Both the position numbers and the translations under genes were made by a program. A DNA stretch of 64,000 nt from an uncultured Victivallales bacterium. Its GTDB lineage: Bacteria > Verrucomicrobiota > Kiritimatiellia > UBA8416. The notes beneath the pieces were generated by a model. The model was not told the origin of the DNA, did not search any database, and was given only the letters and a program-made list of their open reading frames with translations. Where the stretch lies: the NCBI GenBank assembly GCA_964497125.1, contig CAZCDU010000010.1:2888-66887 (forward strand), written 5' to 3'. This document shows, in pieces, positions 3,177 to 39,428 of this stretch (its first letter is position 1; each line of letters opens with the position of its first letter).

Positions 3177-4410
3177 GATCTGTCTTTCTCCTGACGCGTC
3201 GACCTTCTGCAAGAGCAGCATCGCCGCCGGTAACCACGGTCTCATTGGCACGCAGCCCATCCAGCACCAGCCGGTAGCCATGAGCGTGAACGTTGGAAAC
3301 TCGAATATCTCGCTTGAGGGCCCGCTGCGAAATCGCATCAACCACCCACACGGTTTGCGCTTCTGCATCACCGCCTCGCAGGGCTGCTTCCGGCACCCAA
3401 AGCCCGTGACGACCGGAGCCCTCCCCGTCGGCGGAGCCAATTTCCGGTTGGTTCCAGAACTCGACGCGACAAAGCACATCCGGCCGTAGGCGCGGATCCG
3501 GGTCGAACACAGCAACCTTGGCCTGGAGCGTGTTGCGTTGGAGATCTGCCTGGCCAACGATACGCGTCACCCGTCCGGTAAAAACCTGCCCAGGCAGCAT
3601 TCCCGTTGAGATGAGCGTGGGCTGCCCCACGAAAAGCCGCCCGGCTTCCGCCAACGGCACATCAACGCGCACTTGCTGGTGCAGCGGGTCAAACAGAGAA
3701 ACGATGCTGGCACTATGAGGGTCATCCATGGCGGCGCGTCGCTTCTGTCCGGGTTCCGCAAAACGTTGCAGCACGACACCATCACGGTCGGCACGGATCA
3801 CCGTCCGGTCGAGCGCCAGCTGAGCGGTCTCAAGTCGCACGCGCGCAGCGGACAGCTCTGCTTCATGCCGGGCAACGGCCTGGCGGGCCGCAATTCGCTC
3901 CGTGGCGGTTGTGTCCCGCTCCGCCAGGGCCGTGATGCGCTGCCACCGATCCTCTGCTTCTTCGACCCGGGCAGCAGCTCCACGCACCTCGGCTTCAGCC
4001 AATCGCGTGGCCAACGTTGCATCAGCGGCATCAAGCCGGGCAAGTACCTGGCCGTTGGTCACGGTCTCGCCTTCTTTCACGAGCACGTCTTCGATAAACC
4101 CGTCTGTCAGAACTGCGATATTGACTGGCCAGGGATCGGGTTCAAGCCAGCCGGAGGCCTGAAAGAGCAATTCCTCGCCACCCGACGATCCAGCCGATGC
4201 GGTGGTCCCTTCCTGTTCCAGCAAGATGACGGTATCCACCTCGACGGGAACTGCTCGACTCAACTGGTCACGAAAGACAAGCGCCAGTACGGCGAGAATG
4301 CCGCCCAAAAGGGCAAGGCTGAAAAGTACCGTCTTCCATTTGCTCCGACTATGCCCGCGTGATTTGCTCGAAAGATGCGCGGGTACATCATCTGATTTTT
4401 CACTGTCCAT
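3163..4410 (-). CDS. HlyD-family periplasmic adaptor (membrane fusion protein) of the efflux pump
   Basis: 415 aa with one N-terminal TM helix, a long Ala/Glu/Arg-rich coiled-coil segment and a beta-barrel/lipoyl-like C-terminal part. It is followed by the ABC ATPase. Confidence 0.75.
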   Translation of the reverse strand: MDSEKSDDVPAHLSSKSRGHSRSKWKTVLFSLALLGGILAVLALVFRDQLSRAVPVEVDTVILLEQEGTTASAGSSGGEELLFQASGWLEPDPWPVNIAVLTDGFIEDVLVKEGETVTNGQVLARLDAADATLATRLAEAEVRGAAARVEEAEDRWQRITALAERDTTATERIAARQAVARHEAELSAARVRLETAQLALDRTVIRADRDGVVLQRFAEPGQKRRAAMDDPHSASIVSLFDPLHQQVRVDVPLAEAGRLFVGQPTLISTGMLPGQVFTGRVTRIVGQADLQRNTLQAKVAVFDPDPRLRPDVLCRVEFWNQPEIGSADGEGSGRHGLWVPEAALRGGDAEAQTVWVVDAISQRALKRDIRVSNVHAHGYRLVLDGLRANETVVTGGDAALAEGRRVRRKTDHERE

Positions 4411-4492
4411 TTCTTGAGATCCTGTGGTTGCTGCGGCGAATGGCGTTATCCACCGCAGTTTTCAAATGAGATACTGAAGGAATGGAGGGGTA

Positions 4493-4933
4493 TCAGACGC
4501 GCAGAACGATACTGCGCTTGGCCACGAGGGCGGCAGAGAGTCGTAGGTCGACTCCTGGAGGCTGGATCATACGAGGTTGCGCATGATCAGGAAGGGAAGA
4601 AACAACGACAGGGCACGTTGCTAACAGATCAGAGACTTGCGTCGCGTTCACAGATTGCTTCTCGAGGATGTATTCAGAAGCGTCCAGAGTAAGCTGGACA
4701 TCAATGCATGTGTCACAGCAATGACAGTTGGTCACACGGACCAACGCTTCAGGTCGTGCGGAGCGTTGTTGCGTACCGTCACGGTCGCCACAGTAACCGT
4801 CATGGGCCACCTCGATAGCGACATGCCCATCGCTGCCAATACACAGCACAACACCAGACAGCCCTGACACCAGAATGGTTACCGCCATCCAGCTCAGAAC
4901 AAGCAGTCTCACTGTTGTCTGTAGTCCCTTCAT
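4493..4933 (-). CDS. hypothetical small secreted Cys-rich protein
   Basis: 146-aa ORF with a signal-peptide-like N-terminus and a 'CHCCDTC' cysteine cluster. No recognisable family, so it may not be a real gene. Confidence 0.3.
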   Translation of the reverse strand: MKGLQTTVRLLVLSWMAVTILVSGLSGVVLCIGSDGHVAIEVAHDGYCGDRDGTQQRSARPEALVRVTNCHCCDTCIDVQLTLDASEYILEKQSVNATQVSDLLATCPVVVSSLPDHAQPRMIQPPGVDLRLSAALVAKRSIVLRV

Positions 4934-5059
4934 CTATACAACGATACCAAGTTATTCTGCTTATAGTCAATACTCCCAACGCGTAGCGTTTTGCGATGCT
5001 ACCATCACGACCCCCAGAACTCAGAGGCCGGCCAACCCCCGGCATCGTACCGCCGCCGG

Positions 5060-5400
5060 ATTATCCACCGGTGAAACTCTCTTCCTTGCTCTCTACTTGC
5101 TCTAGGCATACAGGCGAGACGCCTGTGCCACGGCAGGGGCATCATCGCCCCCAACGCTTCGTCGAGGAGCCAACGTGGCACGGGCGTCCCGCCCGTAAGC
5201 CAAGAGCAAGTTCTGGAGCAAAACAGGTGAGTTCCAGGTCAGCCCCGCCCCCGAGCGCGCTCGGACTAATCAGGGATGAAACTCTCTTCGTAGGCCGGGA
5301 AAGAATTCTCGGCCGTAGGCTGGGGCGGGAGTAGGCGGGAAGAGTTCCCGCCCTACATTCAGAGGTGAAGACCCCAAGAAGACGGGGAAGTTTCAGACCT
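5060..5400. repeat. intergenic repeat cluster A (MITE/REP-like units plus the 138-nt palindromic element)
   Basis: Contains 'GGTGAAACTCTC', 'CTCGGACTAATCAGGGATGAAAC' and 'GGGGAAGTTTCAGACC' motifs shared with 39.1-39.3 kb (inverted) and 47.1-47.7 kb. The GGGCGGGA...TCCCGCCC palindrome is also present. Confidence 0.7.
5088..5225. repeat. 138-nt highly self-complementary element, copy 1 (candidate structured ncRNA or MITE cargo)
   Basis: Outer stem CTTGCTCT(A)GGC / GCCAAGAGCAAG, inner hairpin CAGGCG-AGA-CGCCTG and GTGCCACGG / (CC)GTGGCAC. Nearly identical to 47551-47688 except for the central ~40 nt. Confidence 0.7.
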
Positions 5401-6394
5401 TGATCTCGGCAAATGACTCACGGCTCTGAGGTTCGCAGACAGCTGTCGTGGATGTATCACCCGCAGACAGTTCGACAGTCACGGCAACATCGCCACCACA
5501 GTATGCGGCTATCACCTTGGCCGAGAGGAGGCCATCGCATTCCGCGTCCTTCTGACCACGCAGCAACCCCGATGGCCCGCTAACGCTCACAGGCTCGAGA
5601 CGCACGTCACCGTCGCGCCCCATGCGTTCAAGGTGCTCACACTCCTCCTTGTTGCGACCAAGGACGAGTTTGGCTCCAGAGGGAAGACGGAAATGGCGGC
5701 CGATCTTGAGCAATGCGACATCAGACATCTCAAGCCCACCCGTAAAGTCGATATGCTCGCGAAGTCGCGCAGAGAAATGCTTGTCCGTTAACAGGCAGCC
5801 ACCCGCAGGACAGGGGTAATCGCCAATATGGAGCTTCTCTGCCAGGTCCATCTGGGGCCTGCGGCCACGCCCCTGGATAGCGAGAAGGCTCTCGCGCGGC
5901 ACCCAGCCTTCCTTCTCGGGGATCGTTGGTGGCATATGTTGCGCGCAAAGCGGCCTCACAATCAGACCTTCCAACTCCGTCTCCCGCTCAATGATCTTCA
6001 ACTTGTCACTGAGCTGCGACATCGGCCGCTGCCCGATCACCTCGCCGGTCATGATAAAGGAAGCGCCTTCATCCTCCATCATCTGTTTCGCCTTGCGGAA
6101 CATCATGATGCGACAGTCCAGGCAGGCATTCATGCCGCTGCCACGGCCGTGTTTTGGATCTACTACGATATCCATGTAGGCGGAGCCCAACCCCACGGTT
6201 GAGAATCGGATTCCCAGTTCGTCGGCAATCTTCTGGGCATAGTGGATACAGCCTCCCGAGCCACGATTACACATACAGAAGGGCCCCGTGAAGTGTACAC
6301 CGATGATCTCAATTCCCATGTCGTGGAGCATCCGTACAGCCAAGTTGCTGTCCAGTCCCCCCGACATCAGGGCAATGGCTTTGCGCTGACTCAT
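5393..6394 (-). CDS. PP-loop superfamily ATP pyrophosphatase (ThiI/MnmA-like, probable thiolation enzyme)
   Basis: PP-loop 'ALMSGGLDS' near the N-terminus and a 'TGEVIGQRPMSQ' motif resembling the ThiI 'TGExLGQVASQT' region. Start was set at 'MSQRKAIALMSGG' so that it does not overlap the sulfite reductase stop. Confidence 0.55.
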   Translation of the reverse strand: MSQRKAIALMSGGLDSNLAVRMLHDMGIEIIGVHFTGPFCMCNRGSGGCIHYAQKIADELGIRFSTVGLGSAYMDIVVDPKHGRGSGMNACLDCRIMMFRKAKQMMEDEGASFIMTGEVIGQRPMSQLSDKLKIIERETELEGLIVRPLCAQHMPPTIPEKEGWVPRESLLAIQGRGRRPQMDLAEKLHIGDYPCPAGGCLLTDKHFSARLREHIDFTGGLEMSDVALLKIGRHFRLPSGAKLVLGRNKEECEHLERMGRDGDVRLEPVSVSGPSGLLRGQKDAECDGLLSAKVIAAYCGGDVAVTVELSAGDTSTTAVCEPQSRESFAEIKV

Positions 6395-6434
6395 CTTTTT
6401 CTCCGAACCTTTCCCGTACGCTCTCGGCGCATCC

Positions 6435-8822
6435 CTATTCACTGTTCTTCTTCACAACGATACGCCAATGACCGTCTTCAAGATCCGTCGTCTCGACAAT
6501 CTCCTGCCCCTCCCCTTTCAGGCTCGCCGGTACGTTCTGAACCGGTTCGCCGGCATCCAGCACAATCGCCAGGGAGGACCCCACATCCATGGTCTCAAGC
6601 CTCAGCTTCGCCTTGACGAAATTCATCGGACAAGCAACGCCGCGGAGATCCAGCTCGGGGACGTTGGCCAGCGGCGCCGCTGCCTGCTCGTCATCGACTA
6701 CGGCCTGCCTGCTTGCTTGCGCCGTCTCCGGAGCTTGCAGCATGGGCTGACCGCCGTCGGAATCCTCTGGCGGATGAAACGCCAGGTTGCCATCAAGGGT
6801 CGAGTACAATAGCTCAACGCGTTCGAGCAGGGAGGAAACATAATCCTCATACCCATCAAACGCATCCTGCCACCCTTGTATATAGCCGCGCGCTCGTGTC
6901 AGCAGTGCGCTGAACTCCTCTGCGACAAGCCCCGTATCAACGAACTGCGCCTCGAACTCCCGCAGAACCGAATCCGGATCCTGCACGTCGACGCCGCGTG
7001 TAATCAGCAGTGCCCTGGCGGCAGGCAGAAGTATATCGAAAGGCTCGGTGGCCTTGCGCGCAGCGGCCAAGTCAGCCTGGATAACCTCGAAAACCCCGGA
7101 CCCGCACTCTCCTGCCCCGCGACCGGCCAGCGAGAACTCCTCGTCGGCACCAAAGTCCCGATAGAAGTCAGGCTGCTCATCGTGAGACGGCGTTGCCGCG
7201 TACCCCGCAACGATCTCCCCCAGGTGCGCTTTATCCGTCCGGTCGAAATAGTCGGAAAACGTCTCGTCATTCCGGCGGTTGGCTTCAAAATCCAGAGCAA
7301 ACGCCCGCATCAGATCGGGTAACGCTCGCGCTGGCACCTCGCCCGCCGCGGCGCCAAGTCGCGCACCAGTCACATCGCATCGACCACCAAGCGTAACACG
7401 GTAGGCCGGCACCAGGCGTCCTTCCGATCGCCGTGCAGCGCCAGAGAGACCTATCGGACCAATCGGCTGGTGCCCGCAAGCATTGGGGCATCCATTGATG
7501 TAGACCTCCATCGTGTTGAGCGTATCAGGACTCACGTCACTCGCGTCCAACGCATCGGCACAGGCGCGAGCCGCACCGCGTGCAAGACATAGCCCCAGGC
7601 GACAGGTCGACGCCCCGGCACAAGCCACAAAGCGTTCCAACGCGACCGGCGCGACCACGTCAGTCTCAAGCGTCTGCAGTTCTGCCATCAGCGCCGGAAG
7701 ATCATCAATCTTCACGGAACGGATCACCAGGTTCTGGGAGCGCATCGTGCGTGGGCCTTGCTCCTCGCTGAACTTCGCGGCGATATCACCGATGCGCGCG
7801 AACTCCCCGGCGGGCACAAACCCGAGGGGCAGATGCAACGGAACGGACACGAGCCCATCCTGCCGCTGCCGTACAGCCCATGCATCACCAAACTGTTCCT
7901 TCTGCGGCACGGATGCCGGTGCCGTCTCGGCGGCTTCGTGCAGCATAACATCGCCACACCATTCGGGCACTCCCTCGGCCGTCACGGCGTCCATCAACTC
8001 GGCGAATTGCTGCTTGATGGCCGCCAGCCCGAGGCGCTCGAACACATAACGCAATCGTGCCCGGTTCTTGTTGGTGCGATCTCCATGCTTGTCGAAGAGT
8101 CGTCTGATGGACTCGGCAATGCGAATCACCTGCGTCGCAGGCGTCCACGAGAGCAACTCGTCGCCGACACGGGAGTTGCCGCCCATGCCGCCCCCGGCAA
8201 TCACACGAAAACCGGGCACGCCGTCGCGGACCTCCGCAACGAACCCCAAATCGGACACCTGCGCCAGGGCGCAATCCGCCGCGCAACCACTGAAGGCAAT
8301 CTTGTACTTACGCGGCAGATTGTAGCTCCCAATCAGTGGAATCAGATACTCGGTCACCGCGTGGGCAAATGGCGTGACATCGAAGCTCTCGTGAGGACAG
8401 ATTCCCGCGTAGGGACACGCCGTGATATTCCGCACCGTATTTCCGCCACCGCCCTTGCTGGTAAGTCCAACGGCCATCAGCCGCCGCATAATGGTGGGTG
8501 TGTCTGCAATGGAAATCCCATGCAGCTGAACGTCCTGGCGGGTCGTTACATGCAGCAGGCCGTTGCCGAACTCCGTGCTCAATGCCGCCAGCTCCCGCGC
8601 CTGTTCGTTGGCCAAGGCACCGCCGGCCACGCGGACACGGACCATGTAAGTCCCGTCCTGGCGCTGTTCGTAAACGCCACGAGGCACACGCTTGGCTTTG
8701 AAGACACCAACGGGTATCTCCTCGGCTTCGAAACGTTTAACGTCCTGCGCATAGGTTTCGATGTCGGCGGCAAGATCTTCTGGTAGGTGATAGAAAGGCT
8801 CACTCATCTGTGTGTGCTCCAA
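6435..8822 (-). CDS. siroheme-type sulfite reductase (ferredoxin-nitrite/sulfite reductase family) fused to a C-terminal TusA-like domain
   Basis: 795 aa. Siroheme/4Fe-4S cysteine motifs 'CAGASTCRLGLC' and 'GCPNACG' plus two NiR/SiR ferredoxin-like half-domains. The last ~70 aa, 'LDLRGVACPMNFVKAKLRLE...', match the TusA/SirA CPxP sulfur-carrier motif. Confidence 0.8.
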   Translation of the reverse strand: MEHTQMSEPFYHLPEDLAADIETYAQDVKRFEAEEIPVGVFKAKRVPRGVYEQRQDGTYMVRVRVAGGALANEQARELAALSTEFGNGLLHVTTRQDVQLHGISIADTPTIMRRLMAVGLTSKGGGGNTVRNITACPYAGICPHESFDVTPFAHAVTEYLIPLIGSYNLPRKYKIAFSGCAADCALAQVSDLGFVAEVRDGVPGFRVIAGGGMGGNSRVGDELLSWTPATQVIRIAESIRRLFDKHGDRTNKNRARLRYVFERLGLAAIKQQFAELMDAVTAEGVPEWCGDVMLHEAAETAPASVPQKEQFGDAWAVRQRQDGLVSVPLHLPLGFVPAGEFARIGDIAAKFSEEQGPRTMRSQNLVIRSVKIDDLPALMAELQTLETDVVAPVALERFVACAGASTCRLGLCLARGAARACADALDASDVSPDTLNTMEVYINGCPNACGHQPIGPIGLSGAARRSEGRLVPAYRVTLGGRCDVTGARLGAAAGEVPARALPDLMRAFALDFEANRRNDETFSDYFDRTDKAHLGEIVAGYAATPSHDEQPDFYRDFGADEEFSLAGRGAGECGSGVFEVIQADLAAARKATEPFDILLPAARALLITRGVDVQDPDSVLREFEAQFVDTGLVAEEFSALLTRARGYIQGWQDAFDGYEDYVSSLLERVELLYSTLDGNLAFHPPEDSDGGQPMLQAPETAQASRQAVVDDEQAAAPLANVPELDLRGVACPMNFVKAKLRLETMDVGSSLAIVLDAGEPVQNVPASLKGEGQEIVETTDLEDGHWRIVVKKNSE

Positions 8823-8837
8823 GGGGTCGTCGTCTGT

Positions 8838-9239
8838 TTATACAATCTCAATCTCAACCGGAGTCGGTACTCCGTCAGCAACCGTAAAGCCTTTGATGTC
8901 GGGATTCTCCGGATCAGCCAGCGATACGATCACGTAAACAACATTCGGCGTGTAGGCCATGCGCAAGTCTTCCTCCGACATGCGAGCGGGCGTTACCGGA
9001 TGACTGTGCCAGATCGCCAGCATACGCAGTCCTCTGGAACGCATATCCTTGACGACCGCAAACTGCTCCTCCGGAGCCATGTTGTAGTGCTCGGCGGCCG
9101 CATCGGTATTCACGAGCTCATAGAACTGCTCAACCGCATCGTCCACGCCACCAAGCAGACCACATGCCTCAATCGGCGCTACGGCGCGGGCCGCCGTCAC
9201 CATCGCGTCATACACATCGCGGGGGATCGTCAGTTTCAT
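8838..9239 (-). CDS. JAMM/MPN+ metalloprotease (Mec+/HcyD-like; releases product from the sulfur-carrier protein)
   Basis: 133 aa with the JAMM motif 'HSHPxxxxxxSxxD' ('IWHSHPVTPARMSEED') and an upstream Glu. It overlaps the MoeB-like gene by 4 bp. Confidence 0.8.
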   Translation of the reverse strand: MKLTIPRDVYDAMVTAARAVAPIEACGLLGGVDDAVEQFYELVNTDAAAEHYNMAPEEQFAVVKDMRSRGLRMLAIWHSHPVTPARMSEEDLRMAYTPNVVYVIVSLADPENPDIKGFTVADGVPTPVEIEIV

Positions 9240-10045
9240 CGTCCTGCCAGGTCGCAGACGGCCTGCTCCTCATCCTTCAATTCCGTAATACTGGGATGCT
9301 CCCCGCACAGCGGGCACTTAGCGTTACGCTTCAGCCCCACTTTTCTGAAATTCGTCTTCAGCGCGTTGTAGACCAACAGGCTATCCGTAAGCAGATCGCC
9401 CTTCCCCAGCAGATACTTGACGGCCTCGGTCGCTTGAAGTGTGCCGATAACGCCGGCCAGCACGCCCAACACCCCCGCCTGCGAACAGGAAGGAACCGCG
9501 CCCTTCGGGGGCGGCGCATCAAACACGCAGCGATAGCAAGCGCTCTCGCCCGGAAGCACGCTCATGATCTGCCCGTCGAAGCGGAGAATCCCCGCATGTG
9601 AATACGGCGTGCCAGAGAAATGGCAGGCGTCTGCAACGAGGAATTTCGACGGAAAGTTGTCCGTGCCATCAATGACGAAGTCGTAGTCCGCCAGGATCTC
9701 AAGGGCATTGGCTGCCGTCAGACGGTCATGGTACGTGACCACGTTCACATCCGGGTTGATTGCACGCATCTTCTCCGCAGCCGAATCCACCTTGGGCTGG
9801 CCCAGGTTGGCCGTGAAGTGAATCACCTGCCGCTGCAGGTTCGTCACGTCAACCACGTCGGCATCAATCACGCCGATAGTGCCGATGCCGGCTGCAGCCA
9901 GGTAGAGACCCGCAGGGGATCCCAATCCACCGGCGCCAACCAACAACACCTTGCCCGCAAGCAGCTTCTCCTGGCCCTTGCCGCCGACCTCGGAGAGAAT
10001 GATATGCCGCGAGTACCGTTCAATTTGCGCTTCCGTCAGATTCAC
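9236..10045 (-). CDS. MoeB/ThiF-family E1-like adenylyltransferase (HcyF/MoeZ-like)
   Basis: Rossmann 'VLLVGAGGLGSPAGLYLAAAGIG', the ThiF-family core and a CxxC...CxxC zinc motif ('CYRC...CPLC'). GTG start overlaps the ThiS-like stop. Confidence 0.85.
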   Translation of the reverse strand: MNLTEAQIERYSRHIILSEVGGKGQEKLLAGKVLLVGAGGLGSPAGLYLAAAGIGTIGVIDADVVDVTNLQRQVIHFTANLGQPKVDSAAEKMRAINPDVNVVTYHDRLTAANALEILADYDFVIDGTDNFPSKFLVADACHFSGTPYSHAGILRFDGQIMSVLPGESACYRCVFDAPPPKGAVPSCSQAGVLGVLAGVIGTLQATEAVKYLLGKGDLLTDSLLVYNALKTNFRKVGLKRNAKCPLCGEHPSITELKDEEQAVCDLAGR

Positions 10046-10251
10046 GCTCTGCCACCCCCCATGAAGTAGAGGAACTCCACCTTATCCGCTTCTTTGACCG
10101 TCGTGTCGCCAAAGTCACTGCGACTCAGGATCTCGCCATTCAGTTCAACACTCACCATGTCCGGCTGCTCAACATCGTGCTCAGCCAGCAACGCAGTGAC
10201 CGTGATTTCCCCGCTGATTTCCGCTGCCTCACCATTAATCTGTATCTTCAT
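10042..10251 (-). CDS. ThiS/MoaD-family sulfur-carrier protein with a short C-terminal extension after Gly-Gly (HcyS/CysO-like)
   Basis: 69 aa with a beta-grasp-like sequence ending '...FMGGGRA'. The GG is followed by 2-3 extra residues, as in carrier proteins processed by a JAMM protease. Confidence 0.7.
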   Translation of the reverse strand: MKIQINGEAAEISGEITVTALLAEHDVEQPDMVSVELNGEILSRSDFGDTTVKEADKVEFLYFMGGGRA

Positions 10252-10264
10252 GCTGCTCTCCTTC

Positions 10265-11512
10265 TCATGTCGCCATACGCTTCAGAGCCTGCGTGATGTC
10301 CTCGCGGATATCATCCACATGCTCAATTCCAATTGAAACTCGAACCAAATCGTCTGTGACCCCCATCGCCTCTCTCTCGGCATCGTTAGCCTCGCGACAG
10401 AATGTCGATGCCGGATGAACGATGAGACTCTTGGCATCGCCCAGGTTGGCCAGGTTCTGGGCATGCTTGAGGGCATTGATGAACGTGAAACACCGCTGCT
10501 TTGTGCCCAACCGCAACGTCAGTAGGCCGCCATACATGCCACCAAACTGCCGCGTGGCGACATCGTGGTTCGGATGCGCCTCCAAGCCCGGATAGCCAAC
10601 ATGTTCAACGTTCGAATCCGCATTGAGGTCCTCGGCCACAGCGGCGGCATTGGAACAGTGCCGCTCCATGCGCAACGCCAGCGACTCCATGCCGATCGAC
10701 ATCAGGAACGCATTGAAGGGCGAGAAACAGCAGCCCAGATCACGATGCACGCGATTGCGCAGGCTGGCCACAAAAGCAAACTGCCGCACCCGGTCATAGT
10801 ACTCCTTGAGATGCGTGTATCTTGGGTTATCCCAATCAAAGGTGCCGCAATCCACGATCGTGCCGCCAATAGCATTGCCGTGCCCGTTGATGTACTTCGA
10901 CGTCGAATGGACGACGATATCGGCGCCCAGTTCTTTCGGACGGCACAGCACCGGCGTCGTCACCGTGTTGTCGACCACCAGGACGATCCCGTGCTCTCTG
11001 GCCACCGCCGCAATGGCGCTGATATCCGGCACATCCAGTTTCGGATTGCCGATCGTCTCGACGAAAATCAGTCGCGTCCGGTCCGTGATCGCTTGACGAT
11101 AGGCCTCCACATCGGTCGTTTCGACGAACCGCGTTGTAATGCCATAGCGTGTCAGCGTGTGTGAAAATAGCGAGTACGTGCCACCGAAGATACTGTTGCC
11201 GGAGACAATCTCATCGCCGCTTCCCGCCAGCGCCAACGCCACCGTGCTGATCGCCGCCATGCCCGAGGCACATGCGACCGACGCAAGCCCATCCTCTAAT
11301 GTCGTCATCCGTTTCTCAAAACGGTCAAGTGTGGGGTTGTTAATGCGGCTATAGACAAACCCCGGTGCGCGCCCTGCAAAGACCGCCTCGAGGTCCTCTG
11401 CCGACTCGTAGGCATACGCCGAACTCTGGAAGATCGGTGACACCGTGGCTCCCGTCTTCTCCTCCGGAGCATACGCCCCATGCAGCAGTTTTGTCTCTAA
11501 ATGCACGTACAT
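10265..11512 (-). CDS. metY: O-acetylhomoserine sulfhydrylase (PLP-dependent Cys/Met metabolism enzyme)
   Basis: 415 aa. PLP-lysine region 'VVHSTSKYINGHG' and overall similarity to the MetY/MetZ/CGS family. First gene of the sulfur cluster. Confidence 0.85.
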   Translation of the reverse strand: MYVHLETKLLHGAYAPEEKTGATVSPIFQSSAYAYESAEDLEAVFAGRAPGFVYSRINNPTLDRFEKRMTTLEDGLASVACASGMAAISTVALALAGSGDEIVSGNSIFGGTYSLFSHTLTRYGITTRFVETTDVEAYRQAITDRTRLIFVETIGNPKLDVPDISAIAAVAREHGIVLVVDNTVTTPVLCRPKELGADIVVHSTSKYINGHGNAIGGTIVDCGTFDWDNPRYTHLKEYYDRVRQFAFVASLRNRVHRDLGCCFSPFNAFLMSIGMESLALRMERHCSNAAAVAEDLNADSNVEHVGYPGLEAHPNHDVATRQFGGMYGGLLTLRLGTKQRCFTFINALKHAQNLANLGDAKSLIVHPASTFCREANDAEREAMGVTDDLVRVSIGIEHVDDIREDITQALKRMAT

Positions 11513-11778
11513 CTCCCTTCCCAGGAGGTGAAATCACGCCACAGCCAGCGGCTGCAGAACAACAGATTCAGACCATCACCCGAAAGAAACACAAGAATGG
11601 TGATCGTTTTGCTACTGTATCCATACAGAACCGGCATGTCAATGCTGAGAAGGGAAAATCGCGAGCTTGTTCAGAGTCTCTTCAGCTCACGGCCCGCAAC
11701 GCGCCAGACATCACCCATGGAAGGAATTGTACAACGGCCCTCACAAACCGCCCGAGGCCGCCCGTCAGCTTGCCGCCA

Positions 11779-12462
11779 TCAGAACGCAATCACGTAGTTG
11801 AACTTCACGGTATATACGTCTTCGGCACCGTCTGCGGAGGAAGTAGAGACCCAACCTTCGAACACAAGATCCAACGGCAGTTCGTGCAGCAATCCCGCGC
11901 TGGCAAGCCACTCATCGCCGCCATCGATCTGCCGCACATCAGCTCGCAAAACCAGGCCTCGCGACTGCAATTTGAGAGTCCTATCGAGGCCCGCGAACAG
12001 ACTGTTGTTATCCTTCTGGAAACTATAGCCCAAACTCAAACGCGCAACGCCGAGGTCAAGACCTGAAACCAGATAGGGATCGGCCTCCCCCGCCTCATCT
12101 CGATCATCAGAGACGTTCGCCACGCCAACGAGCATGGCGTAGCAAGGCTCATCGCCCGGCAGAGGCAGTCGCCATTTGGCCTGCCCGGTCAGCGGCCCGC
12201 TATCGCCTGAATCAACTCTCGAGTCGAGTCCGACCTCAACACCTGCCGGCAAGCCGTACTTCAGGCCGGCCACGTACGCGGGCCCCGCGCCGCTCATGTA
12301 ATTACCCCACGTCTGCAGCACCAACACATTTCGCGGTGCTACATCTACAGTCGGGATATTGTTAAGTCCCGATGGCGAGGCCCAGGCCATCCCGCATACC
12401 ATAATGCTCAATCCGCCTGCTGCAACGCCCATCCACTTGTTTCGTCTCACTGTCTTACGCAT
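11779..12462 (-). CDS. putative outer-membrane beta-barrel protein
   Basis: 227 aa with a signal peptide, alternating amphipathic beta-strand pattern and a C-terminal aromatic residue ('...YVIAF'). Confidence 0.45.
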   Translation of the reverse strand: MRKTVRRNKWMGVAAGGLSIMVCGMAWASPSGLNNIPTVDVAPRNVLVLQTWGNYMSGAGPAYVAGLKYGLPAGVEVGLDSRVDSGDSGPLTGQAKWRLPLPGDEPCYAMLVGVANVSDDRDEAGEADPYLVSGLDLGVARLSLGYSFQKDNNSLFAGLDRTLKLQSRGLVLRADVRQIDGGDEWLASAGLLHELPLDLVFEGWVSTSSADGAEDVYTVKFNYVIAF

Positions 12463-12468
12463 ACCGTA

Positions 12469-12657
12469 TCACTCCTTCTCTTGACTGTTGTCTGCTACCT
12501 CGCGCCGGCCTCTCTTAAACTCCGTAAGACTGGCGCCGAGCGAGCGCGCCAGCTCGGGCAGTCTCTTGGCCCCGAACAAAAACACCAGAATCAGCAGTAT
12601 GATTCCGATTTCACCGATTCCCGGCATGCCACCGGTAAAGAATGCGAATACCATCAC
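12469..12657 (-). CDS. tatA: twin-arginine translocase subunit TatA/E
   Basis: 62 aa with an N-terminal TM helix then 'FGAKRLPELARSLGASLTEFKRG', the TatA amphipathic helix signature. Confidence 0.8.
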   Translation of the reverse strand: MMVFAFFTGGMPGIGEIGIILLILVFLFGAKRLPELARSLGASLTEFKRGRREVADNSQEKE

Positions 12658-12746
12658 ACGACCCCCGTTACGTTACGAAGTCCCAGCAGCTCATGCCGGT
12701 TGCTTCAGATGCTTGCCCTCAGCAAAAAGCCCATCATGAGTTGCCT

Positions 12747-13718
12747 CTAGCCCCCAATTGCAGCCATGGAGACAGGCTGCTCAAAATGGATGTCCGATCG
12801 CTTGCACTGTAGTGCCGTCCGCACGGTCGCAGCCAGTGAACCACCGTGACGGCCCTGCAACAGCGGGCGAATGTTGTGCCCTTCCCTGCGAGCCAGGCAT
12901 CCCATCAAGCGACCATCGGCCGTTAGCCGCAGCCTTGAGCAATCAGAGCAGAAGCGGTCGCTGCACGGCGAAATGAATCCAACCACGCCTTCGCTGCCAT
13001 CTTGTCCCCTTACGTGGTAACGCTTAGCCGACGCCCCGGGAACACGCGGAAGGGCTGCGAGTTCGAACGCGGTCGCCAACGTCTGACGCACGGCTGTCGT
13101 TGAAACAAACCTCTGCTCGAACAGTGCCGCGCCGTACCCAATCGGCATGAGCTCAAGGAACCTGACCTCGCAGCCGCGGCGCAAAGCAAACCAGAGTACG
13201 TCACACACTTCGTGATCATTGATCCCCCGCATGACCACCATGTTCAACTTGACCGGGCGCAAGTTAGCCCGGAGAGCGGCGTCGATTCCTCCAATGTTGC
13301 TCCCGACACCATCACGCCGAGTAATACGACGGAACGTATCCCGATTAAGCGAGTCGAGGCTGATGTTCACTCGCTGCAAACCCGCAGCGCTCAGGTCATC
13401 CGCCATTGCCCCCAGCAGTTGCGCATTTGTCGTCATACTGAGGTCGGGGACACCGAGTTCCGAAAGCCGTGCGACCAGATCCACGATGCCCTTGCGAGCC
13501 AACGGATCCCCGCCAGTCAAACGAACCTTCTGGATCGCGTATGACGCCCGAAGCTGGTCCACAAAGGTCCGAATTTCATCAAAACTGAGTACATCCTGAT
13601 GTTTGCAGGATGGCACGCCCTCGGCTGGCATACAATAGCGGCAGCGAAGCTGGCAGCGATCCGTCACCGAGATCCGCAACGAGACAGGGGGCCTGCGGAT
13701 GGGTGCGATCATAGTCAT
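12747..13718 (-). CDS. moaA: GTP 3',8-cyclase MoaA (radical SAM, molybdenum cofactor biosynthesis)
   Basis: 'CQLRCRYC' radical-SAM CxxxCxxC motif and a C-terminal second-cluster Cys triad 'CSDRFCSDCSRLRLTADGRLMGC'. Length 323 aa. Confidence 0.9.
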   Translation of the reverse strand: MTMIAPIRRPPVSLRISVTDRCQLRCRYCMPAEGVPSCKHQDVLSFDEIRTFVDQLRASYAIQKVRLTGGDPLARKGIVDLVARLSELGVPDLSMTTNAQLLGAMADDLSAAGLQRVNISLDSLNRDTFRRITRRDGVGSNIGGIDAALRANLRPVKLNMVVMRGINDHEVCDVLWFALRRGCEVRFLELMPIGYGAALFEQRFVSTTAVRQTLATAFELAALPRVPGASAKRYHVRGQDGSEGVVGFISPCSDRFCSDCSRLRLTADGRLMGCLARREGHNIRPLLQGRHGGSLAATVRTALQCKRSDIHFEQPVSMAAIGG

Positions 13719-13937
13719 CTCCTTTCCAATGCGAGACCACGGACCCTGAATGGCGTGTGGTACTCACGGGAGGTGTGATCATTTCCTTTCACACCCTATC
13801 GGCCCGCACCTCGTAGGCCTGACTCAGGCCGTTAGACGCATGGGCTCGGAGGCTTCTCATTGCGACGACTCTTGCCTCTGACAAATATATCTCAGCAGAT
13901 TTCCCGGGGCCGATACAACCTACCCCGGGATGATCAG

Positions 13938-13966
13938 GACGGGCTGCCAGACGCAGCCCGTCCCGT
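13938..13966 (-). terminator. GC-rich hairpin downstream of the porin gene (candidate intrinsic terminator)
   Basis: GGACGGGCTGC-cagac-GCAGCCCGTCC is a perfect 11-bp stem directly 3' of the porin stop. No strong U-tract follows. Confidence 0.4.
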
Positions 13967-13980
13967 CGCCGACAATGCCT

Positions 13981-15042
13981 TTAGAATTTTGCTCTGACAC
14001 CAAAGAGGATCGAATCCTCAATCGAGTTTTTGGCAACCTTCAGATCCTTGGCGTCCTTCATGTCACCCGAGTTGAAGTTCGAGTACTCCACCATCAGCTC
14101 ATAGTTTTTGGTTGGGCTGTACTTGACCCCCGCAGACCAGAATTCCGTTTCCACGTCGTCTGTCGTGTCTTCGTCGATAATCTCCAGCCGGCCCCATATA
14201 GCCGTCTTCTCAATCGCGTTGCACTCAACACCGAGCGTGACGAGGCTGGGGTCATAACCGGGATAGCCCTTCAGGCTACTGAATGAGATATACTCTGCGT
14301 TGATGTTCCCAATGCCTTTGACCTTGTAGACCGCACCAGCCCCCCAGCGGGTTTCATCTTCCATTGCCGAAACCGTCGTGACGCCAGTATCGTCGTCTGT
14401 AGCCTCGGTATCGGAATACGATTCGGACGCACCCGAAATCTTAACGGTTAGATTCTTGATGAGCTTATCGATCGTGAGTTTTGCGGTGTAGTTGTCGCCA
14501 GCCTCGTTTGTCGCCAGGGTCTCATCGTCATCGGTATGCCGATGCTGATAGGCCGCAGCGGCAATGTTGCCCACGCAGGGAATATCAACGATTCCGTGGA
14601 ATCCCCAGACCTTGTCGATTTCGAACTGATGGGCGACCGAATCGTTCAGGTACTTGTCGTAGTCCAGGCCGAAGGGCATTTCGTCTTTGCCAAAGATCAG
14701 CGTTACGCATGAATCGCCGATGTGCTTCGCCGTGAAGTTCGCTTCTTCAACGGCTTTTGCGCTGACAGTCGTCCCATCGCGCGATTCGATGTCTGCTGCA
14801 TCCAGCTTGAGTTTGGCGGCGAGGTCGTTCTCGAACTTGGCGCCAAAATCAAGATAGAACTGATTCGACTTGAACTTATCATCATCACCCGTGCCGCCAA
14901 CGTTCTTGCTATTCTCGTAAAACAGCTCAAGGTTCGCCTTAAGTGACAATTCCGGGATCTTCGTTTCCTCTGCTGCGTTGGTCATGGAAACGACCATGCA
15001 CAGCACCACACCGATAGCCACAGCTCTTGTTAAACCACTCAT
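13981..15042 (-). CDS. outer-membrane porin (beta-barrel, C-terminal Phe)
   Basis: Start set at 'MSGLTRAVAIGVVLCMVVSMTNAAEE' (signal peptide). Asp/Thr-rich loops and amphipathic strands. It ends '...FGVRAKF' and is the last gene of the Mo-enzyme operon. Confidence 0.55.
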   Translation of the reverse strand: MSGLTRAVAIGVVLCMVVSMTNAAEETKIPELSLKANLELFYENSKNVGGTGDDDKFKSNQFYLDFGAKFENDLAAKLKLDAADIESRDGTTVSAKAVEEANFTAKHIGDSCVTLIFGKDEMPFGLDYDKYLNDSVAHQFEIDKVWGFHGIVDIPCVGNIAAAAYQHRHTDDDETLATNEAGDNYTAKLTIDKLIKNLTVKISGASESYSDTEATDDDTGVTTVSAMEDETRWGAGAVYKVKGIGNINAEYISFSSLKGYPGYDPSLVTLGVECNAIEKTAIWGRLEIIDEDTTDDVETEFWSAGVKYSPTKNYELMVEYSNFNSGDMKDAKDLKVAKNSIEDSILFGVRAKF

Positions 15043-15174
15043 TCGTCTTACCCCCCTCACGTTATTTGGAACACCACAGCAACAGGTTCTGCTCCATGAT
15101 CCAGCATGTCGCAGATGTATCAATTTCCGTTCCTACCCTCCTCCCTGTACTCTTCTTCGCACAGTTGCCAATGT

Positions 15175-15822
15175 TCACCCTTCTTTCTGCAATTGGTGTC
15201 CGTGGCCGATAACGGTCGATGCACAGTCGGCAAGCGCTGAATAGAAGGCGTTGTCTGTGCCATGCCTCATCTTGTCGCAGAACTCAGGGACCCATGGACA
15301 AAGCAGAGCATCTGCAAAAGACCGCTGCTTGGCGGCGTAGGCCGCCGCCGTCTGCGGATCTGAGCTCTCGAGCGCAGCTATCTCCTTACAGATCAGATAG
15401 CTCATAAACTCCAACTCGATAGCAATGTGATCCGGCAGGTCTTTGCAGTCGTCACTCCTGGCGAGCCCCTCCTGCTCATACCATTTGATGACGTCCATCG
15501 TGGAGTCCCCCATGACTCGCCTGCCTTCATCAAGATACACTGACCCATATGGCGCGGCCGCCAGGGCAAAGGGGCCTACGAACAGTTTTGCATAAGCGAT
15601 CTTCAACTGCTCATCGGTGTAGCGCGCCAACCCGCTTTCCATATCATCAACGCACGCCGCCGCCTCCGGGCAAACCGCACTGAGACACTCACGCAAGTTG
15701 TCAAGAACGTCTTCTGCCGCCAGAAGCTCCTTCTCAGGCTCATAGAAACAGGCCGCGAGAAGTCTCAATCCGTTTTCCTGTCGCTTCTTACTGGCGACTT
15801 TCTCGTTCTCTGAATTGCTCAT
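15175..15822 (-). CDS. TorD/DmsD-family redox-enzyme maturation chaperone
   Basis: 215-aa all-helical acidic protein with TorD-like segments ('FYEPEKELL...LxxEYxxLF'). It sits between the FeS subunit and the porin. Confidence 0.65.
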   Translation of the reverse strand: MSNSENEKVASKKRQENGLRLLAACFYEPEKELLAAEDVLDNLRECLSAVCPEAAACVDDMESGLARYTDEQLKIAYAKLFVGPFALAAAPYGSVYLDEGRRVMGDSTMDVIKWYEQEGLARSDDCKDLPDHIAIELEFMSYLICKEIAALESSDPQTAAAYAAKQRSFADALLCPWVPEFCDKMRHGTDNAFYSALADCASTVIGHGHQLQKEG

Positions 15823-15907
15823 ATCGGTGCCTCATCTGAGGCTGGTGACGAGATCTCGTTTCGCCGCTCACCACCAGCCAGCGCTCAGAACGCCCTGTAC
15901 CGCGTCC

Positions 15908-16747
15908 TCAGGCCTTCTTGTAATCCCTGATATAGAAGACATTCGGCCCGGTGCCCTTTTCGCCATCCGCCAGCACGCCGCCCTTGTTGTCTTTCAGCCT
16001 TGTGGCTTTATGCTTCTTGAGGAGCTTACTGACATCACTGTCCGGATCGTTCCTGTCACCAAAAATGCGAGCATTGGCAGGACATGACACCACGCAGTAA
16101 GGATCTTCGCCGTTTCTCACTCGATGGATGCAGAACGTGCACTTCTCAACCCAACCATCCTTACGGACGTCCGCCAGCTTGCCCCGGCCACGCGATTTCT
16201 GCCCCTCCTCAGGCGATTTGCGATCCTTGAACTCATAGGCATGCTTTGACGGCGGGGTGGCTCCCGCTTTCTCTGCGATCTCAGCCCCGGAGCACGTTAC
16301 ACCAGCAATTGCCGCGCTCTGGTCGTGCGAGGCGGCATGTGTCTCGTCACCGACTTCATTGAAGCTTATTACCGTATAGCCGGCGCCGTCCTTCTCAACA
16401 TCTTCAGAGCTGTAGGGACATCCGTCCGCCTTGAAGCACTTCCTGCACTGAATGCAGTACCGTTGATTGTACATGGTAATGCCATCTTCAGTCTTGTACA
16501 GCGCTCTCGGCTCAGGACAGCCCTCAAGGCATTTCGGGTCATCACAGTGATTGCAGAGCACGGGACGATTGACGTATTCGACGTTCGGAAACTTACCTTT
16601 CGCCTCAATACTGAAATCGGCCCAGTTGAAGGTCTGCCCCTTGGCTCTCGCCTGTGTGTTGTTCTCCGTCTTGCAGGCCATGGCGCAGGCACCGCAGCCC
16701 ACGCACTTCTGCAGATCAATTACCATTGCGTATTGTTTCGTAGCCAT
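15908..16747 (-). CDS. 4Fe-4S ferredoxin-type subunit (DmsB/PsrB/ArrB-like) of the molybdoenzyme
   Basis: Four Cys clusters: 'CVGCGACAMAC', 'CNHCDDPKCLEGCP', 'CIQCRKCFKADGCP' and 'CTFCIHR...CVVSCP'. Confidence 0.85.
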   Translation of the reverse strand: MATKQYAMVIDLQKCVGCGACAMACKTENNTQARAKGQTFNWADFSIEAKGKFPNVEYVNRPVLCNHCDDPKCLEGCPEPRALYKTEDGITMYNQRYCIQCRKCFKADGCPYSSEDVEKDGAGYTVISFNEVGDETHAASHDQSAAIAGVTCSGAEIAEKAGATPPSKHAYEFKDRKSPEEGQKSRGRGKLADVRKDGWVEKCTFCIHRVRNGEDPYCVVSCPANARIFGDRNDPDSDVSKLLKKHKATRLKDNKGGVLADGEKGTGPNVFYIRDYKKA

Positions 16748-16766
16748 AATATACAGGTCCTTTCAC

Positions 16767-19298: not shown

Positions 19299-19382
19299 CT
19301 TGCCTTCTCCTTGTGTTTCAGCGTCCGCGCACGCATGTGGCGTCCTGTGCCCCGGAATGCCCGTTCCCAGCCGTCAGTCAAT

Positions 19383-20879
19383 TCACTCCTCCTCGAGTTC
19401 CACAATCGCATCTTCGAAATACTCAATCGCAATATCCAGAAGCAGGGCGGCGTACTTCTTGTTGTGAACCCCGCCGCCGGCACGGACAATCCCAAGATTT
19501 GTCCGTCCATTCTTAATCAACGTTTCAGCCTTCTCGATGGCCGAGGCAGACCGCTTGCCCTTCGCCTGTGCCAGAGCGTCAACGGCTGCGGCTTCATACT
19601 CAACGGCTTCCTCCAGGATCTCCTCCACATCGCTTTTCCACTTCTTGATGAGGGCGCCTTCCTTCTCGGAGTGGCAGTTCACGCAGACACTGGCCGTGGC
19701 GAGCTTCTTCGTTCTGCCCTTGGCATCAAAGGCGTCCACAATGTGACAGGCAAGACACCCCATCTCGACATCGTGGTGCTTGATTGGCATAGGCGTGTCC
19801 AAGCCCTTGCCTCCTGTGCCTGAGATCAGCAACCGCTTGTTTTGATGCGGGGTGGCATGGCACGCCTTACAGTCGCTCAGCGAAGCGTCGAAGTGGTCAA
19901 AGCCCTCAGGAGCCTTGCCGTGTTCGATAATCTCGTGGCAGCTGAAACAGCTGGCCGTCTGGGGCGCTACATGCTTTTCGTGCATCAGCTCTGCGTCACA
20001 AGCGTCCTTCATGATTTCCTGATCGTATTCGTGGCACTCCAGGCAGCGCTGCTCCCGCATTACGCCGGTTCCCCTGACTTGGTGGAGATGGCAACTCGCG
20101 CAGGCGACCCCTCTTTGCTCAAGGATCTTGTGCGTGACAAGCTCCTCGCCGTCCGAAGCATCATCCCTGAAAGGCTTCTCCGGGACCGTGTGGCACAATG
20201 AGCATGCGGCCTGCTCCTCGTTCATCTCCACGTTCTTGAAGTGACACAAATGGCAGGTCTTCGCCGCGACCTCCATGTGGTGATCTGCAGTCTCGTGGCG
20301 GTGACAGATGCTGCAATGCTTCTCCTGACCCGCCATCCAGTTGTCCTCTTTGAAATGTGCTTTATGCACGAATGGGACGGTTGATTCAGACCCGTCCTTT
20401 CGCGTGTAAGAGGCAAATGTGAGCCGATTGGTCATCCACTGCCCTGCTTCGGCGTCCTCGTCAGTGGAATGGCAACCGGATGCCGTGCAGCTGCCATCAT
20501 TGACAAGCGCTGCTTTCTGGACCGTACTCGCGCTGGTCCCAAGGTATGAGAAGAGCTGTCCAAGGCCCTTGAACTTGGCTCTCAACGTATGATGCTCGCC
20601 CGGCGGATAGTGACAATCCACGCACGTCACCCCCTCTTCGGCGTGCTCCGACTTTGCCCACGTCGCATGATAACTGTCCATGATATGACAGCTTCCACAG
20701 AAGGTAGGGCGCGAGGTCGAATACTCAGCCCCGCAAACGAGGATCACCAGGAAGAGGACCACGCCCCCGATGAACAGCAACCAGCGGCGCCGAATTCTGT
20801 CGAGCCATATCACCACCCGACGGCCAACGGGGCCGATGGGCGGCACCTCAACGTTTCTGCTCTGAGAGTCTTTCTTCAT
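19383..20879 (-). CDS. membrane-anchored multiheme cytochrome c, NapC/NirT/NrfH family (about 11-12 hemes)
   Basis: N-terminal TM helix. Eleven CxxCH motifs: CGSCH, CVDCH, CSICH, CHLCH, CSLCH, CASCH, CLECH, CFSCH, CKACH, CLACH, CVNCH. One additional CX4CH, 'CTASGCH'. Confidence 0.85.
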   Translation of the reverse strand: MKKDSQSRNVEVPPIGPVGRRVVIWLDRIRRRWLLFIGGVVLFLVILVCGAEYSTSRPTFCGSCHIMDSYHATWAKSEHAEEGVTCVDCHYPPGEHHTLRAKFKGLGQLFSYLGTSASTVQKAALVNDGSCTASGCHSTDEDAEAGQWMTNRLTFASYTRKDGSESTVPFVHKAHFKEDNWMAGQEKHCSICHRHETADHHMEVAAKTCHLCHFKNVEMNEEQAACSLCHTVPEKPFRDDASDGEELVTHKILEQRGVACASCHLHQVRGTGVMREQRCLECHEYDQEIMKDACDAELMHEKHVAPQTASCFSCHEIIEHGKAPEGFDHFDASLSDCKACHATPHQNKRLLISGTGGKGLDTPMPIKHHDVEMGCLACHIVDAFDAKGRTKKLATASVCVNCHSEKEGALIKKWKSDVEEILEEAVEYEAAAVDALAQAKGKRSASAIEKAETLIKNGRTNLGIVRAGGGVHNKKYAALLLDIAIEYFEDAIVELEEE

Positions 20880-27412: not shown

Positions 27413-27435
27413 GTCGATCGTTCCTTTCTCTGTTT

Positions 27436-32435: not shown

Positions 32436-32528
32436 GATGATCTCCGTTTTGGTTGCGTCCGTGCGTCGCTCATCCCAGGAGCGCGATTCGGACGAAATGC
32501 AGTTCTATCGCCTGGGCCGATATCCTTC

Positions 32529-34706: not shown

Positions 34707-34760
34707 AATCTTTCCTCCCTAAAACGGATCGCCCTCGGTCGTTGGTCGTTGTGAATGGAC

Positions 34761-36791: not shown

Positions 36792-36797
36792 CCACTC

Positions 36798-39330: not shown

Positions 39331-39428
39331 CTCCGACTCCCCTCCCTCCCTTTAGCCTTGCCGAACGTCAACCCCCACCGGTAAAGTGGTTGACGTTTGA
39401 CTTATTGCCGCCGAAGAAAGGGAACCCG

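Follow-up and report, generated by a model that had tools for sequence, protein, structure and literature searches.

What does a bacterium make with a sulfite reductase that is encoded next to a ThiS-like sulfur carrier protein, and how would sulfur pass from the one to the other? These questions are raised by a five-gene locus in a 64,000-nucleotide (nt) stretch of DNA from an uncultured Victivallales bacterium (contig CAZCDU010000010.1, positions 2,888 to 66,887). We call the whole stretch the window and give all coordinates in its own numbering. The locus encodes MetY, the carrier, an E1 adenylyltransferase, a JAMM metalloprotease and a siroheme sulfite reductase (Sir) that ends in a TusA domain. 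Judging from the sequence, we consider it very probable that this operon serves the synthesis of homocysteine, and with it methionine, from sulfite by way of a protein thiocarboxylate, as in the HcyS-type pathway of Wolinella. The gene set, TusA included, is already known, and the operon is a new example of a pathway type that has been characterized biochemically. Its novelty is modest. It lies in a helical domain of the reductase with an invariant cysteine (here called domain X), in the absence of the reductase tail where carrier genes are missing, in a second cysteine motif and in an appended ThiI+DUF814 gene.

Gene content of the operon

Gene families were assigned by profile searches of the window open reading frames (ORFs) against Pfam and NCBIfam. 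The five co-directional minus-strand ORFs at 6435-11512, which an original prediction had described from the sequence alone, are confirmed, with Pfam family matches far beyond chance (Table 1). From metY through the carrier, E1 and JAMM genes to the reductase gene, the junctions measure +13, -4, -4 and +15 nt. Such overlapping or abutting junctions are an operon-like layout. In addition to these five, there is a further gene downstream of the reductase, overlooked in the original prediction, which encodes a ThiI-like PP-loop protein with an NFACT-R_2 (DUF814) domain. The assignment of the locus to homocysteine synthesis is upheld by the folds, the motifs, the pyridoxal phosphate (PLP) lysine of MetY (K206, at least 95% conserved in 48 homologues) and the siroheme ligands of the reductase. 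The cassette is also syntenic with that of Wolinella sp. Against NCBIfam TIGR01326, MetY scores 479.6 bits, slightly short of the cutoff of 495.

The small ORF had been taken for a beta-grasp protein of the ThiS/MoaD type with C-terminal glycines, and both its ThiS match and its glycine run agree with this. It scores 67.6 bits against the NCBIfam ThiS equivalog TIGR01683 (cutoff 37.45), a profile that stops at G67. The C-terminus of the window carrier reads ...EFLYFMGGGRA, and nearly all of 58 carrier relatives from related loci have (D/E)FLYFMGGG and, after it, a tail that varies and is usually 1-15 residues long. Because the family motif ends in FMGGG and the ThiS profile ends at G67, we place the diglycine at G66-G67 and take the extension to be RA. 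Thus, the diglycine with a removable extension that had been proposed earlier stands, but the extension had been read as GRA, which is wrong.

The E1 has ThiF as its only domain, and rhodanese is absent. Its scores against the NCBIfam MoeB, UbaA and ThiF models are mostly below cutoff, with PRK05690 (MoeB subfamily) barely over (266.8 versus 266). The residues G37xG39G40xG42, R72, K85 and D129, the two CxxC zinc pairs (C170/C173 and C244/C247), C187 and the tail residue C264 are at least 95% conserved, and C141 is conserved as well. In the JAMM protease, the motif E24...H78-x-H80-x7-S88-x2-D91 is complete. Across 65 homologues, conservation is at least 95% at each of the five positions, and the zinc site expected from the earlier reading is intact.

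Conservation of the cassette across phyla

We scanned genomes for relatives of the reductase, taking one genome per species. This gave 521 stretches that encode a relative, and 80 loci were fetched for neighbourhood analysis. Relatives are carried by Kiritimatiellia, Lentisphaerae/Victivallales, Verrucomicrobiota, Planctomycetota, Omnitrophota, Bacteroidota, Spirochaetota, Acidobacteriota (including the cultured Telmatobacter bradus), Fibrobacterota, Desulfobacterales, Nitrospiraceae and Campylobacterota. The closest come from Kiritimatiellia/Victivallales-type genomes and are 50-81% identical. For the reductase-TusA fusion we count more than 120 full-length clusters (at least 50% identity) and more than 230 distinct full-length fusion proteins. 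The original prediction considered this fusion less common; on the contrary, in many phyla it is the form that the reductase of this cassette normally takes, and Wolinella sp. has it too. A 503-residue fragment from a 4577-bp ENA contig (P0031) matches the C-terminal 63% of the window reductase at 100% identity, so the same or a near-identical organism is present in a public ENA metagenome.

For synteny, the window proteins were searched by tblastn against the 80 loci, and counts were made for the 60 loci in which the reductase has 3.6 kb or more of upstream sequence. Directly upstream and on the same strand, ThiF is found in 51 of the 60, JAB (the JAMM protease family) in 48, ThiS in 46 and MetY in 44, and all four partners are present in 42. 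There are two main gene orders, ThiS-MetY-ThiF-JAB (25 loci) and MetY-ThiS-ThiF-JAB (17 loci).

A separate observation concerns loci L037, L038, L042, L046, L055-L057, L059, L060, L065, L066, L068 and L080, which are mostly from Bacteroidota and have a second TusA-like match besides the one fused to Sir. In several of them, ThiF and JAB are separated by a gap of 0.7-1 kb, and the cassette may have an additional gene with a TusA domain inserted in it.

In the Campylobacteraceae and Wolinella sp. loci, the cassette lies within a sulfate-assimilation operon with the order (sulfate ABC transporter)-CysH-CysD-CysN-ThiS-ThiF-JAB-Sir-X-TusA-CysG. The Wolinella sp. reductase is a Sir-X-TusA protein of 764 residues that is 37% identical to the window reductase over residues 11-792. 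Identities for the carrier, the E1 and the JAMM protease are 44%, 55% and 42%, and a MetY encoded nearby is 40% identical. The Wolinella sp. carrier ends in FMGGGA. The abstract of the biochemical work on the Wolinella pathway reportedly speaks of 'HcyS-Ala', from which HcyD takes off the C-terminal alanine, and the FMGGGA end matches this.

The reductase core and a second cysteine motif

The 795-residue reductase has three parts: the reductase core, domain X and TusA. An AlphaFold2 model from 102 homologues, with a predicted local distance difference test score (pLDDT) of 90.6 and a predicted template modelling score (pTM) of 0.85, lays the protein out as a NirA/SiR-like core, a five-helix bundle, a disordered linker (689-715) and a TusA domain. 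By Foldseek, the modelled core resembles 3b0h, 1zj8 and 5h8y with template modelling (TM) scores of 0.7-0.8, which would give it their two-fold pseudo-symmetric fold. Residue conservation was read from an alignment of 79 fusion proteins, made up of the window protein and those of related loci. The cysteines of the canonical cofactor motif, C401, C407, C445 and C449, align with the cluster cysteines of tobacco nitrite reductase.

The N-terminal half of the core has a second motif, formed by C136, C142, C180 and C184. Its occurrence is all-or-none: 33 of the 79 proteins have all four cysteines, and the others have none, except L071 with one. The bearers are Kiritimatiellia, Lentisphaerae and Verrucomicrobiota relatives, Planctomycetota, one Nitrospiraceae locus and one Hydrogenedentota locus. 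The Campylobacteraceae homologue L078 lacks the motif (the Wolinella locus is outside this alignment), and plant nitrite reductase, when aligned, has no cysteines at these positions. All four cysteines are retained without exception in an alignment of 102 close relatives. This pattern suggests that an extra metal centre may sit at the pseudo-symmetric site.

Domain X and the TusA tail

C573 of domain X is present in 79 of the 79 fusion proteins, and the model puts it just ahead of the first helix of the predicted five-helix bundle. Domain X has no match in Pfam at E up to 10 and none in the PDB by sequence, and a Foldseek search with a separate tail model gave no significant structural relative of the bundle. 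The HEPN protein 2hsb was considered as a relative and rejected (Foldseek E = 0.12, not significant). A profile-free HMMER scan of 1.84 billion representative proteins returned only 265 matches to domain X. The full-length ones are proteins of 770-800 residues with the domain at residues ~540-700. Since the matches are confined to these fusions, domain X is specific to the Sir-X-TusA architecture. A stand-alone domain X was also considered and rejected; the shorter matches resemble contig fragments, and P0121, on a 1.4-kb contig, is uninformative.

The TusA domain carries C731, which is invariant in the same alignment and corresponds to the conserved TusA active cysteine at the N-terminus of helix 1. 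As modelled, the domain matches 3hz7 and 3lvj_C with a TM score of 0.85 by Foldseek, and its best match is YeeD/TsuB (8j4c). We found nothing specific in the literature on fusions of sulfite reductase with TusA.

What would such a tail be for? Three reductases of 573-579 residues end after the core (L083 7001-8740, L087 6060-7784 and L085 176-1897). They are 52-54% identical to the Campylobacteraceae fusion, and L083 is from a Helicobacter sp. isolate. L085 is cut at the contig end, so only L083 and L087 are informative on the context. In these two loci with upstream sequence, there is no ThiS, ThiF or JAB near the reductase. The order in L083 is MetY-Sir-CysG-...-HTS (homoserine acyltransferase), and that in L087 is Sir-CysG, with no MetY called. 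At the other end of the protein, JAB is fused N-terminally to Sir-TusA in four database proteins of 906-917 residues (P0089, P0111, P0358 and P0362). By their architecture, these triple fusions show a tight predicted functional link between protease and reductase. The tail-less homologues without carrier genes, the JAB triple fusions and the E1, which always lacks rhodanese but keeps its conserved cysteines, together support the idea that the X-TusA tail would serve sulfur transfer to the carrier/E1 pair. The invariance of C573 and C731 and the restriction of domain X to this architecture point in the same direction. Sulfur channelling through TusA is plausible.

The downstream ThiI+DUF814 gene

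The probable start of the ThiI+DUF814 gene is an ATG at 6394, with GGAG ahead of it, 40 nt past the reductase stop. Its product has the PP-loop motif SGGLDS, the ThiI-type CxxC motif CLDC, the GRxRxxQ insert as GRGRRPQ, and a C-terminal NFACT-R_2 domain. A relative adjoins the cassette in the closest locus (L001) and lies within 8 kb of it in seven more, one of them from Omnitrophota. No TusA domain other than the Sir-fused one was detected in any of these eight loci. ThiI+DUF814 proteins have been predicted to be alternative tRNA 4-thiouridine synthases, with a TusA gene as their only conserved neighbour (Burroughs & Aravind 2014, PMC4075521). On the basis of this prediction and the gene adjacency, the window protein probably draws on the fused TusA for tRNA 4-thiouridine. 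The link between this gene and the cassette is suggestive and is not conserved family-wide.

Proposed mechanism

We propose a scheme of five steps, built on orthology and motifs. First, the JAMM protease would cut RA off the 69-residue carrier and bare Gly66-Gly67, as suggested by the GGG-plus-tail motif and the Wolinella precedent. Second, the rhodanese-less E1 would adenylate the carrier at G67, in keeping with its family and its intact ATP and zinc motifs. Third, the siroheme/[4Fe-4S] reductase would reduce sulfite, and the reduced sulfur would turn the carrier acyl-adenylate into a thiocarboxylate. Fourth, following Wolinella, MetY would form an adduct of carrier and homocysteine from O-acetylhomoserine and the carrier thiocarboxylate. 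Fifth, again by precedent, the same JAMM protease would hydrolyse this adduct to homocysteine and free carrier.

For the third step, a persulfide relay through C573 and C731, standing in for the missing rhodanese, is a possibility that we raise tentatively. A bolder version, which we regard as rather unlikely, makes Sir-X-TusA a self-contained sulfite-to-persulfide machine. C573 and C731 would take sulfur from the siroheme site in a DsrC-like manner and feed the adenylated carrier on the E1, and free sulfide would never be released. The clade's second motif would bind an extra cluster or cofactor, giving a variant with two centres, of which no example is known among monomeric assimilatory reductases, and the same TusA would feed ThiI+DUF814.

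Evidence against the scheme and alternative explanations

Several observations weigh against the scheme or parts of it. The window scans found no cysD, cysN or cysH (sulfate activation), no cysG (siroheme synthase) and no metX or metA (homoserine acyltransferase), so the sources of sulfite and of O-acylhomoserine must be elsewhere in the genome. The PDB matches of MetY include the MetY of T. maritima (7kb0, 386 bits) and that of W. succinogenes (3ri6, 311 bits). The preference of the window MetY for a thiocarboxylate is hypothetical, as the sulfide-using T. maritima enzyme scores above that of Wolinella. The nearest solved relatives of the reductase are nitrite reductases. It falls below the cutoffs of all NCBIfam sulfite and nitrite reductase models, the best being NirA / nitrite reductase, and what favours sulfite over nitrite as the likely substrate is solely the genomic context, namely the cysH/cysD/cysN neighbours in Campylobacterota. 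As for the cysteine relay, attack on an acyl-adenylate needs, by its chemistry, no more than free sulfide. In the abstract of the Wolinella paper, free bisulfide from Sir is said to be enough in vitro, so the known chemistry does not call for a cysteine relay. In addition, the two informative tail-less loci are a small sample, which limits the support for the role of the tail.

Could the carrier thiocarboxylate be a general sulfur donor? MetY would then be one user among cysteine synthesis (CysO/CysM-like), thiamin thiazole synthesis and tRNA thiolation, and might itself be a bifunctional O-acetylserine/O-acetylhomoserine sulfhydrylase. We think this improbable, though the carrier does exceed the NCBIfam ThiS equivalog cutoff and TIGR01326 does cover bifunctional O-acetylhomoserine/O-acetylserine enzymes. 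The ThiI+DUF814 gene lies 40 nt downstream, with relatives near the cassette in 8 other loci, and about a quarter of loci have ThiS-ThiF-JAB-Sir with no adjacent MetY. However, MetY is the only conserved biosynthetic partner (44 of 60 loci), and no ThiG, ThiH or CysM-type gene is found among the scanned window ORFs. The obligatory C-terminal tail together with a JAMM protease also fits HcyS and CysO, unlike thiamin ThiS.

Much less probable still is that the 795-residue protein works as a nitrite reductase (NirA) or some other siroheme enzyme, with the carrier genes as incidental neighbours. Its top PDB and NCBIfam matches are indeed ferredoxin-nitrite reductases or carry the name 'NirA family'. 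But M. tuberculosis 'NirA' (1zj8), also a top match, is reported to be a sulfite reductase. The fused TusA, the invariant linkage with ThiS, ThiF, JAB and MetY, and the position beside CysH, CysD and CysN in Campylobacterota all speak against this reading, and the names given by NCBI and JGI are TusA-family protein or sulfite reductase.

Equally remote is a SAMP/TtuB-type ubiquitin-like conjugation system of carrier, E1 and JAMM protease, in which the protease would detach the carrier from target proteins and sulfur metabolism would be secondary: the best NCBIfam matches of the E1 and the JAMM protease are 'SAMP-activating enzyme E1 UbaA' (332 bits) and 'desampylase' (71 bits), but these scores are well short of the cutoffs of 450 and 130 bits, and the cassette is tied to MetY and sulfite reductase across phyla and lies inside sulfate-assimilation operons in Campylobacterota.

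Upstream region and neighbouring genes

The TTGACA of a promoter-like sequence ahead of metY (Table 1) and a downstream CGATCAnCAT box (window 11560-11650) are partly conserved upstream of metY in L001 and L026. This box could be an operator for an unknown regulator. A riboswitch or stable leader ahead of metY was considered and rejected. Rfam (E up to 1, positions 4000-14000) gives no riboswitch before metY, the one match being an unrelated molybdenum cofactor (Moco) riboswitch, and the 103-nt metY leader folds no better than shuffled sequences (z = -0.12).

Table 1. Features of the operon and its reductase, in window coordinates
Feature	Coordinates	Strand	Details
Promoter-like TTGACA-17-TACAGT upstream of metY	11614..11642	minus	consensus scan, 10/12 matches, weak evidence
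MetY-type O-acetylhomoserine sulfhydrylase	10265..11512	minus	415 residues; Cys_Met_Meta_PP PF01053 E = 9e-125
HcyS-type ThiS-like sulfur carrier	10042..10251	minus	69 residues; ThiS PF02597 E = 4.6e-14
ThiF/MoeB-type E1 adenylyltransferase	9236..10045	minus	269 residues; ThiF PF00899 E = 3e-80
JAMM/MPN+ metalloprotease, HcyD/Mec+-like	8838..9239	minus	133 residues; Prok-JAB PF14464 E = 4.6e-24
Siroheme sulfite reductase-domain X-TusA fusion	6435..8822	minus	795 residues; NIR_SIR E = 1.3e-42, NIR_SIR_ferr E = 2.1e-32, TusA E = 9.2e-19
Siroheme/[4Fe-4S] sulfite reductase core, NirA/SiR fold	7203..8822	minus	residues 1-540; NIR_SIR and two NIR_SIR_ferr matches
Second motif C136-X5-C142-X37-C180-X3-C184	8271..8417	minus	N-terminal half of core; spacing same as canonical site; clade-specific
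Canonical cofactor motif C401-X5-C407-X37-C445-X3-C449	7476..7622	minus	invariant in 79 sequences
Helical domain X	6753..7190	minus	residues 545-690; invariant motif FSLxGRGxGEC(G/S)xG; C573 codon 7104-7106
TusA domain	6447..6665	minus	residues 720-792; PF01206 E = 9.2e-19; invariant motif GVACPMNFVK; C731 codon 6630-6632
ThiI-like PP-loop ATPase with NFACT-R_2 (DUF814)	5393..6442	minus	PF18297 52 bits, PF02568 47 bits, both above cutoff

Two flanking ORFs have no Pfam or NCBIfam match: one at 4493-4933 (minus strand, 146 residues, cysteine-rich with a hydrophobic N-terminus) and one at 11779-12462 (minus strand, 227 residues, with a signal-peptide-like N-terminus). Further upstream, a TatA-like ORF of 62 residues lies at 12469-12657. 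The Moco riboswitch (RF01055, 50 bits, E = 8e-10) is at 13703-13863 on the minus strand, directly upstream of MoaA (TIGR02666, 313 bits; region 12747-13863). A porin gene (13981-15123) precedes a molybdopterin oxidoreductase operon (15175-20879, minus), which encodes an 843-residue catalytic subunit, a 4Fe-4S subunit, a NarJ-like chaperone and a NapC/NirT-type multihaem cytochrome. A biotin synthesis operon is found at 39390-45035 on the plus strand, with genes for a BioB-like radical SAM protein, BioA, BioF, BioG and a BioD-like protein.

The window also holds a complete-looking carbon monoxide dehydrogenase (CODH)/acetyl-CoA synthase (ACS) cluster of the Wood-Ljungdahl type (26609-37583, minus). 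It encodes a pterin-binding methyltransferase, two CdhD-type corrinoid Fe-S subunits, the RACo activator, ACS, a prismane-family CODH and two CooC-like ATPases. Its presence is uncommon in a Kiritimatiellia/Lentisphaerae-like genome and indicates an anaerobic organism.

Significance and comparison with known systems

The operon provides an example of a complete protein-thiocarboxylate homocysteine route from the Planctomycetota-Verrucomicrobiota-Chlamydiota (PVC) group, in an apparent anaerobe with CODH/ACS. In 2017, the route was reported to be missing from KEGG and MetaCyc and its proteins to be misannotated in UniProt (Price et al. 2017). The NCBI name for the reductase is merely 'sulfurtransferase TusA family protein'. 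Recognition of the cassette averts false calls of methionine auxotrophy in metagenome-assembled genomes. In addition, C573, C731, the tail-less variants and the second motif are targets for mutagenesis that could trace the path of sulfur from a sulfite reductase to a carrier protein.

Gene neighbourhoods of this kind were listed by Iyer, Burroughs & Aravind 2006 (PMC1779556). Table 1, row 4e of that paper combines ThiS/MoaD, JAB, a rhodanese-less E1, SirA/TusA, sulfite reductase and O-acetylhomoserine sulfhydrylase, with Wolinella included. SirA/TusA is described there as always present, and SirA was proposed as a substitute for rhodanese. Going by that entry, the window locus is exactly this neighbourhood class. 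Domain X, its invariant cysteine and the second cysteine motif are window features that the paper's treatment of this class does not describe.

The appended gene has its counterpart in the ThiI+DUF814/TusA system (PMC4075521), with which it shares the PP-loop, CxxC, GRxRxxQ and NFACT-R_2 features and a TusA neighbour. Unlike that system, where TusA is stand-alone, the TusA partner in the window is the C-terminus of a sulfite reductase, and the adjacency is found only in close relatives.

For the cysteine pair of the reductase, DsrAB-DsrC offers an analogy. It too combines a siroheme sulfite reductase with a cysteine-bearing sulfur acceptor, to which C573/C731 might be likened. However, DsrC, which is TusE-like, is a protein of its own, and the fold match to DsrAB is distant (Foldseek E ~1e-6 to 1e-7).

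The cysteine pathway of M. tuberculosis (CysO, CysM, Mec+ and MoeZ) works with a ThiS-like thiocarboxylate, from which a PLP enzyme builds an adduct of carrier and amino acid, and with a JAMM hydrolase. The logic of carrier thiocarboxylate, PLP enzyme and JAMM protease is shared with the window. The pathway differs in that cysteine is made by CysM from O-phosphoserine, MoeZ has a rhodanese, and there is no sulfite reductase-TusA fusion.

A thiocarboxylate pathway to homocysteine itself, through MetO, MetM, Mec and MoeZ, is reported for Streptomyces (Hasebe et al. 2024, as cited in the GapMind 2026 preprint). According to that account, a carrier thiocarboxylate donates the homocysteine sulfur and a JAMM protease matures the carrier, as we propose for the window. 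In contrast to the window, it is described as using the threonine-synthase-like MetM with O-phosphohomoserine in place of MetY, and a MoeZ that bears rhodanese.

The closest counterpart is the HcyS/HcyF/HcyD/MetY/Sir pathway of W. succinogenes, which papers citing Krishnamoorthy & Begley (JACS 2011) describe as reconstituted, and whose MetY has a solved structure (3RI6). Unlike in the Wolinella locus, metY leads the operon in the window and cysH, cysD, cysN and cysG are not attached. The carrier tail is RA in the window and A in Wolinella, and ThiI+DUF814 is appended in the window. The window reductase also has the second CX5CX37CX3C motif, unlike the Campylobacteraceae homologue L078. What the window shares with Wolinella is the five protein types, the Sir-X-TusA architecture, an FMGGG end with a removable tail and a rhodanese-less E1, at 37-55% identity.

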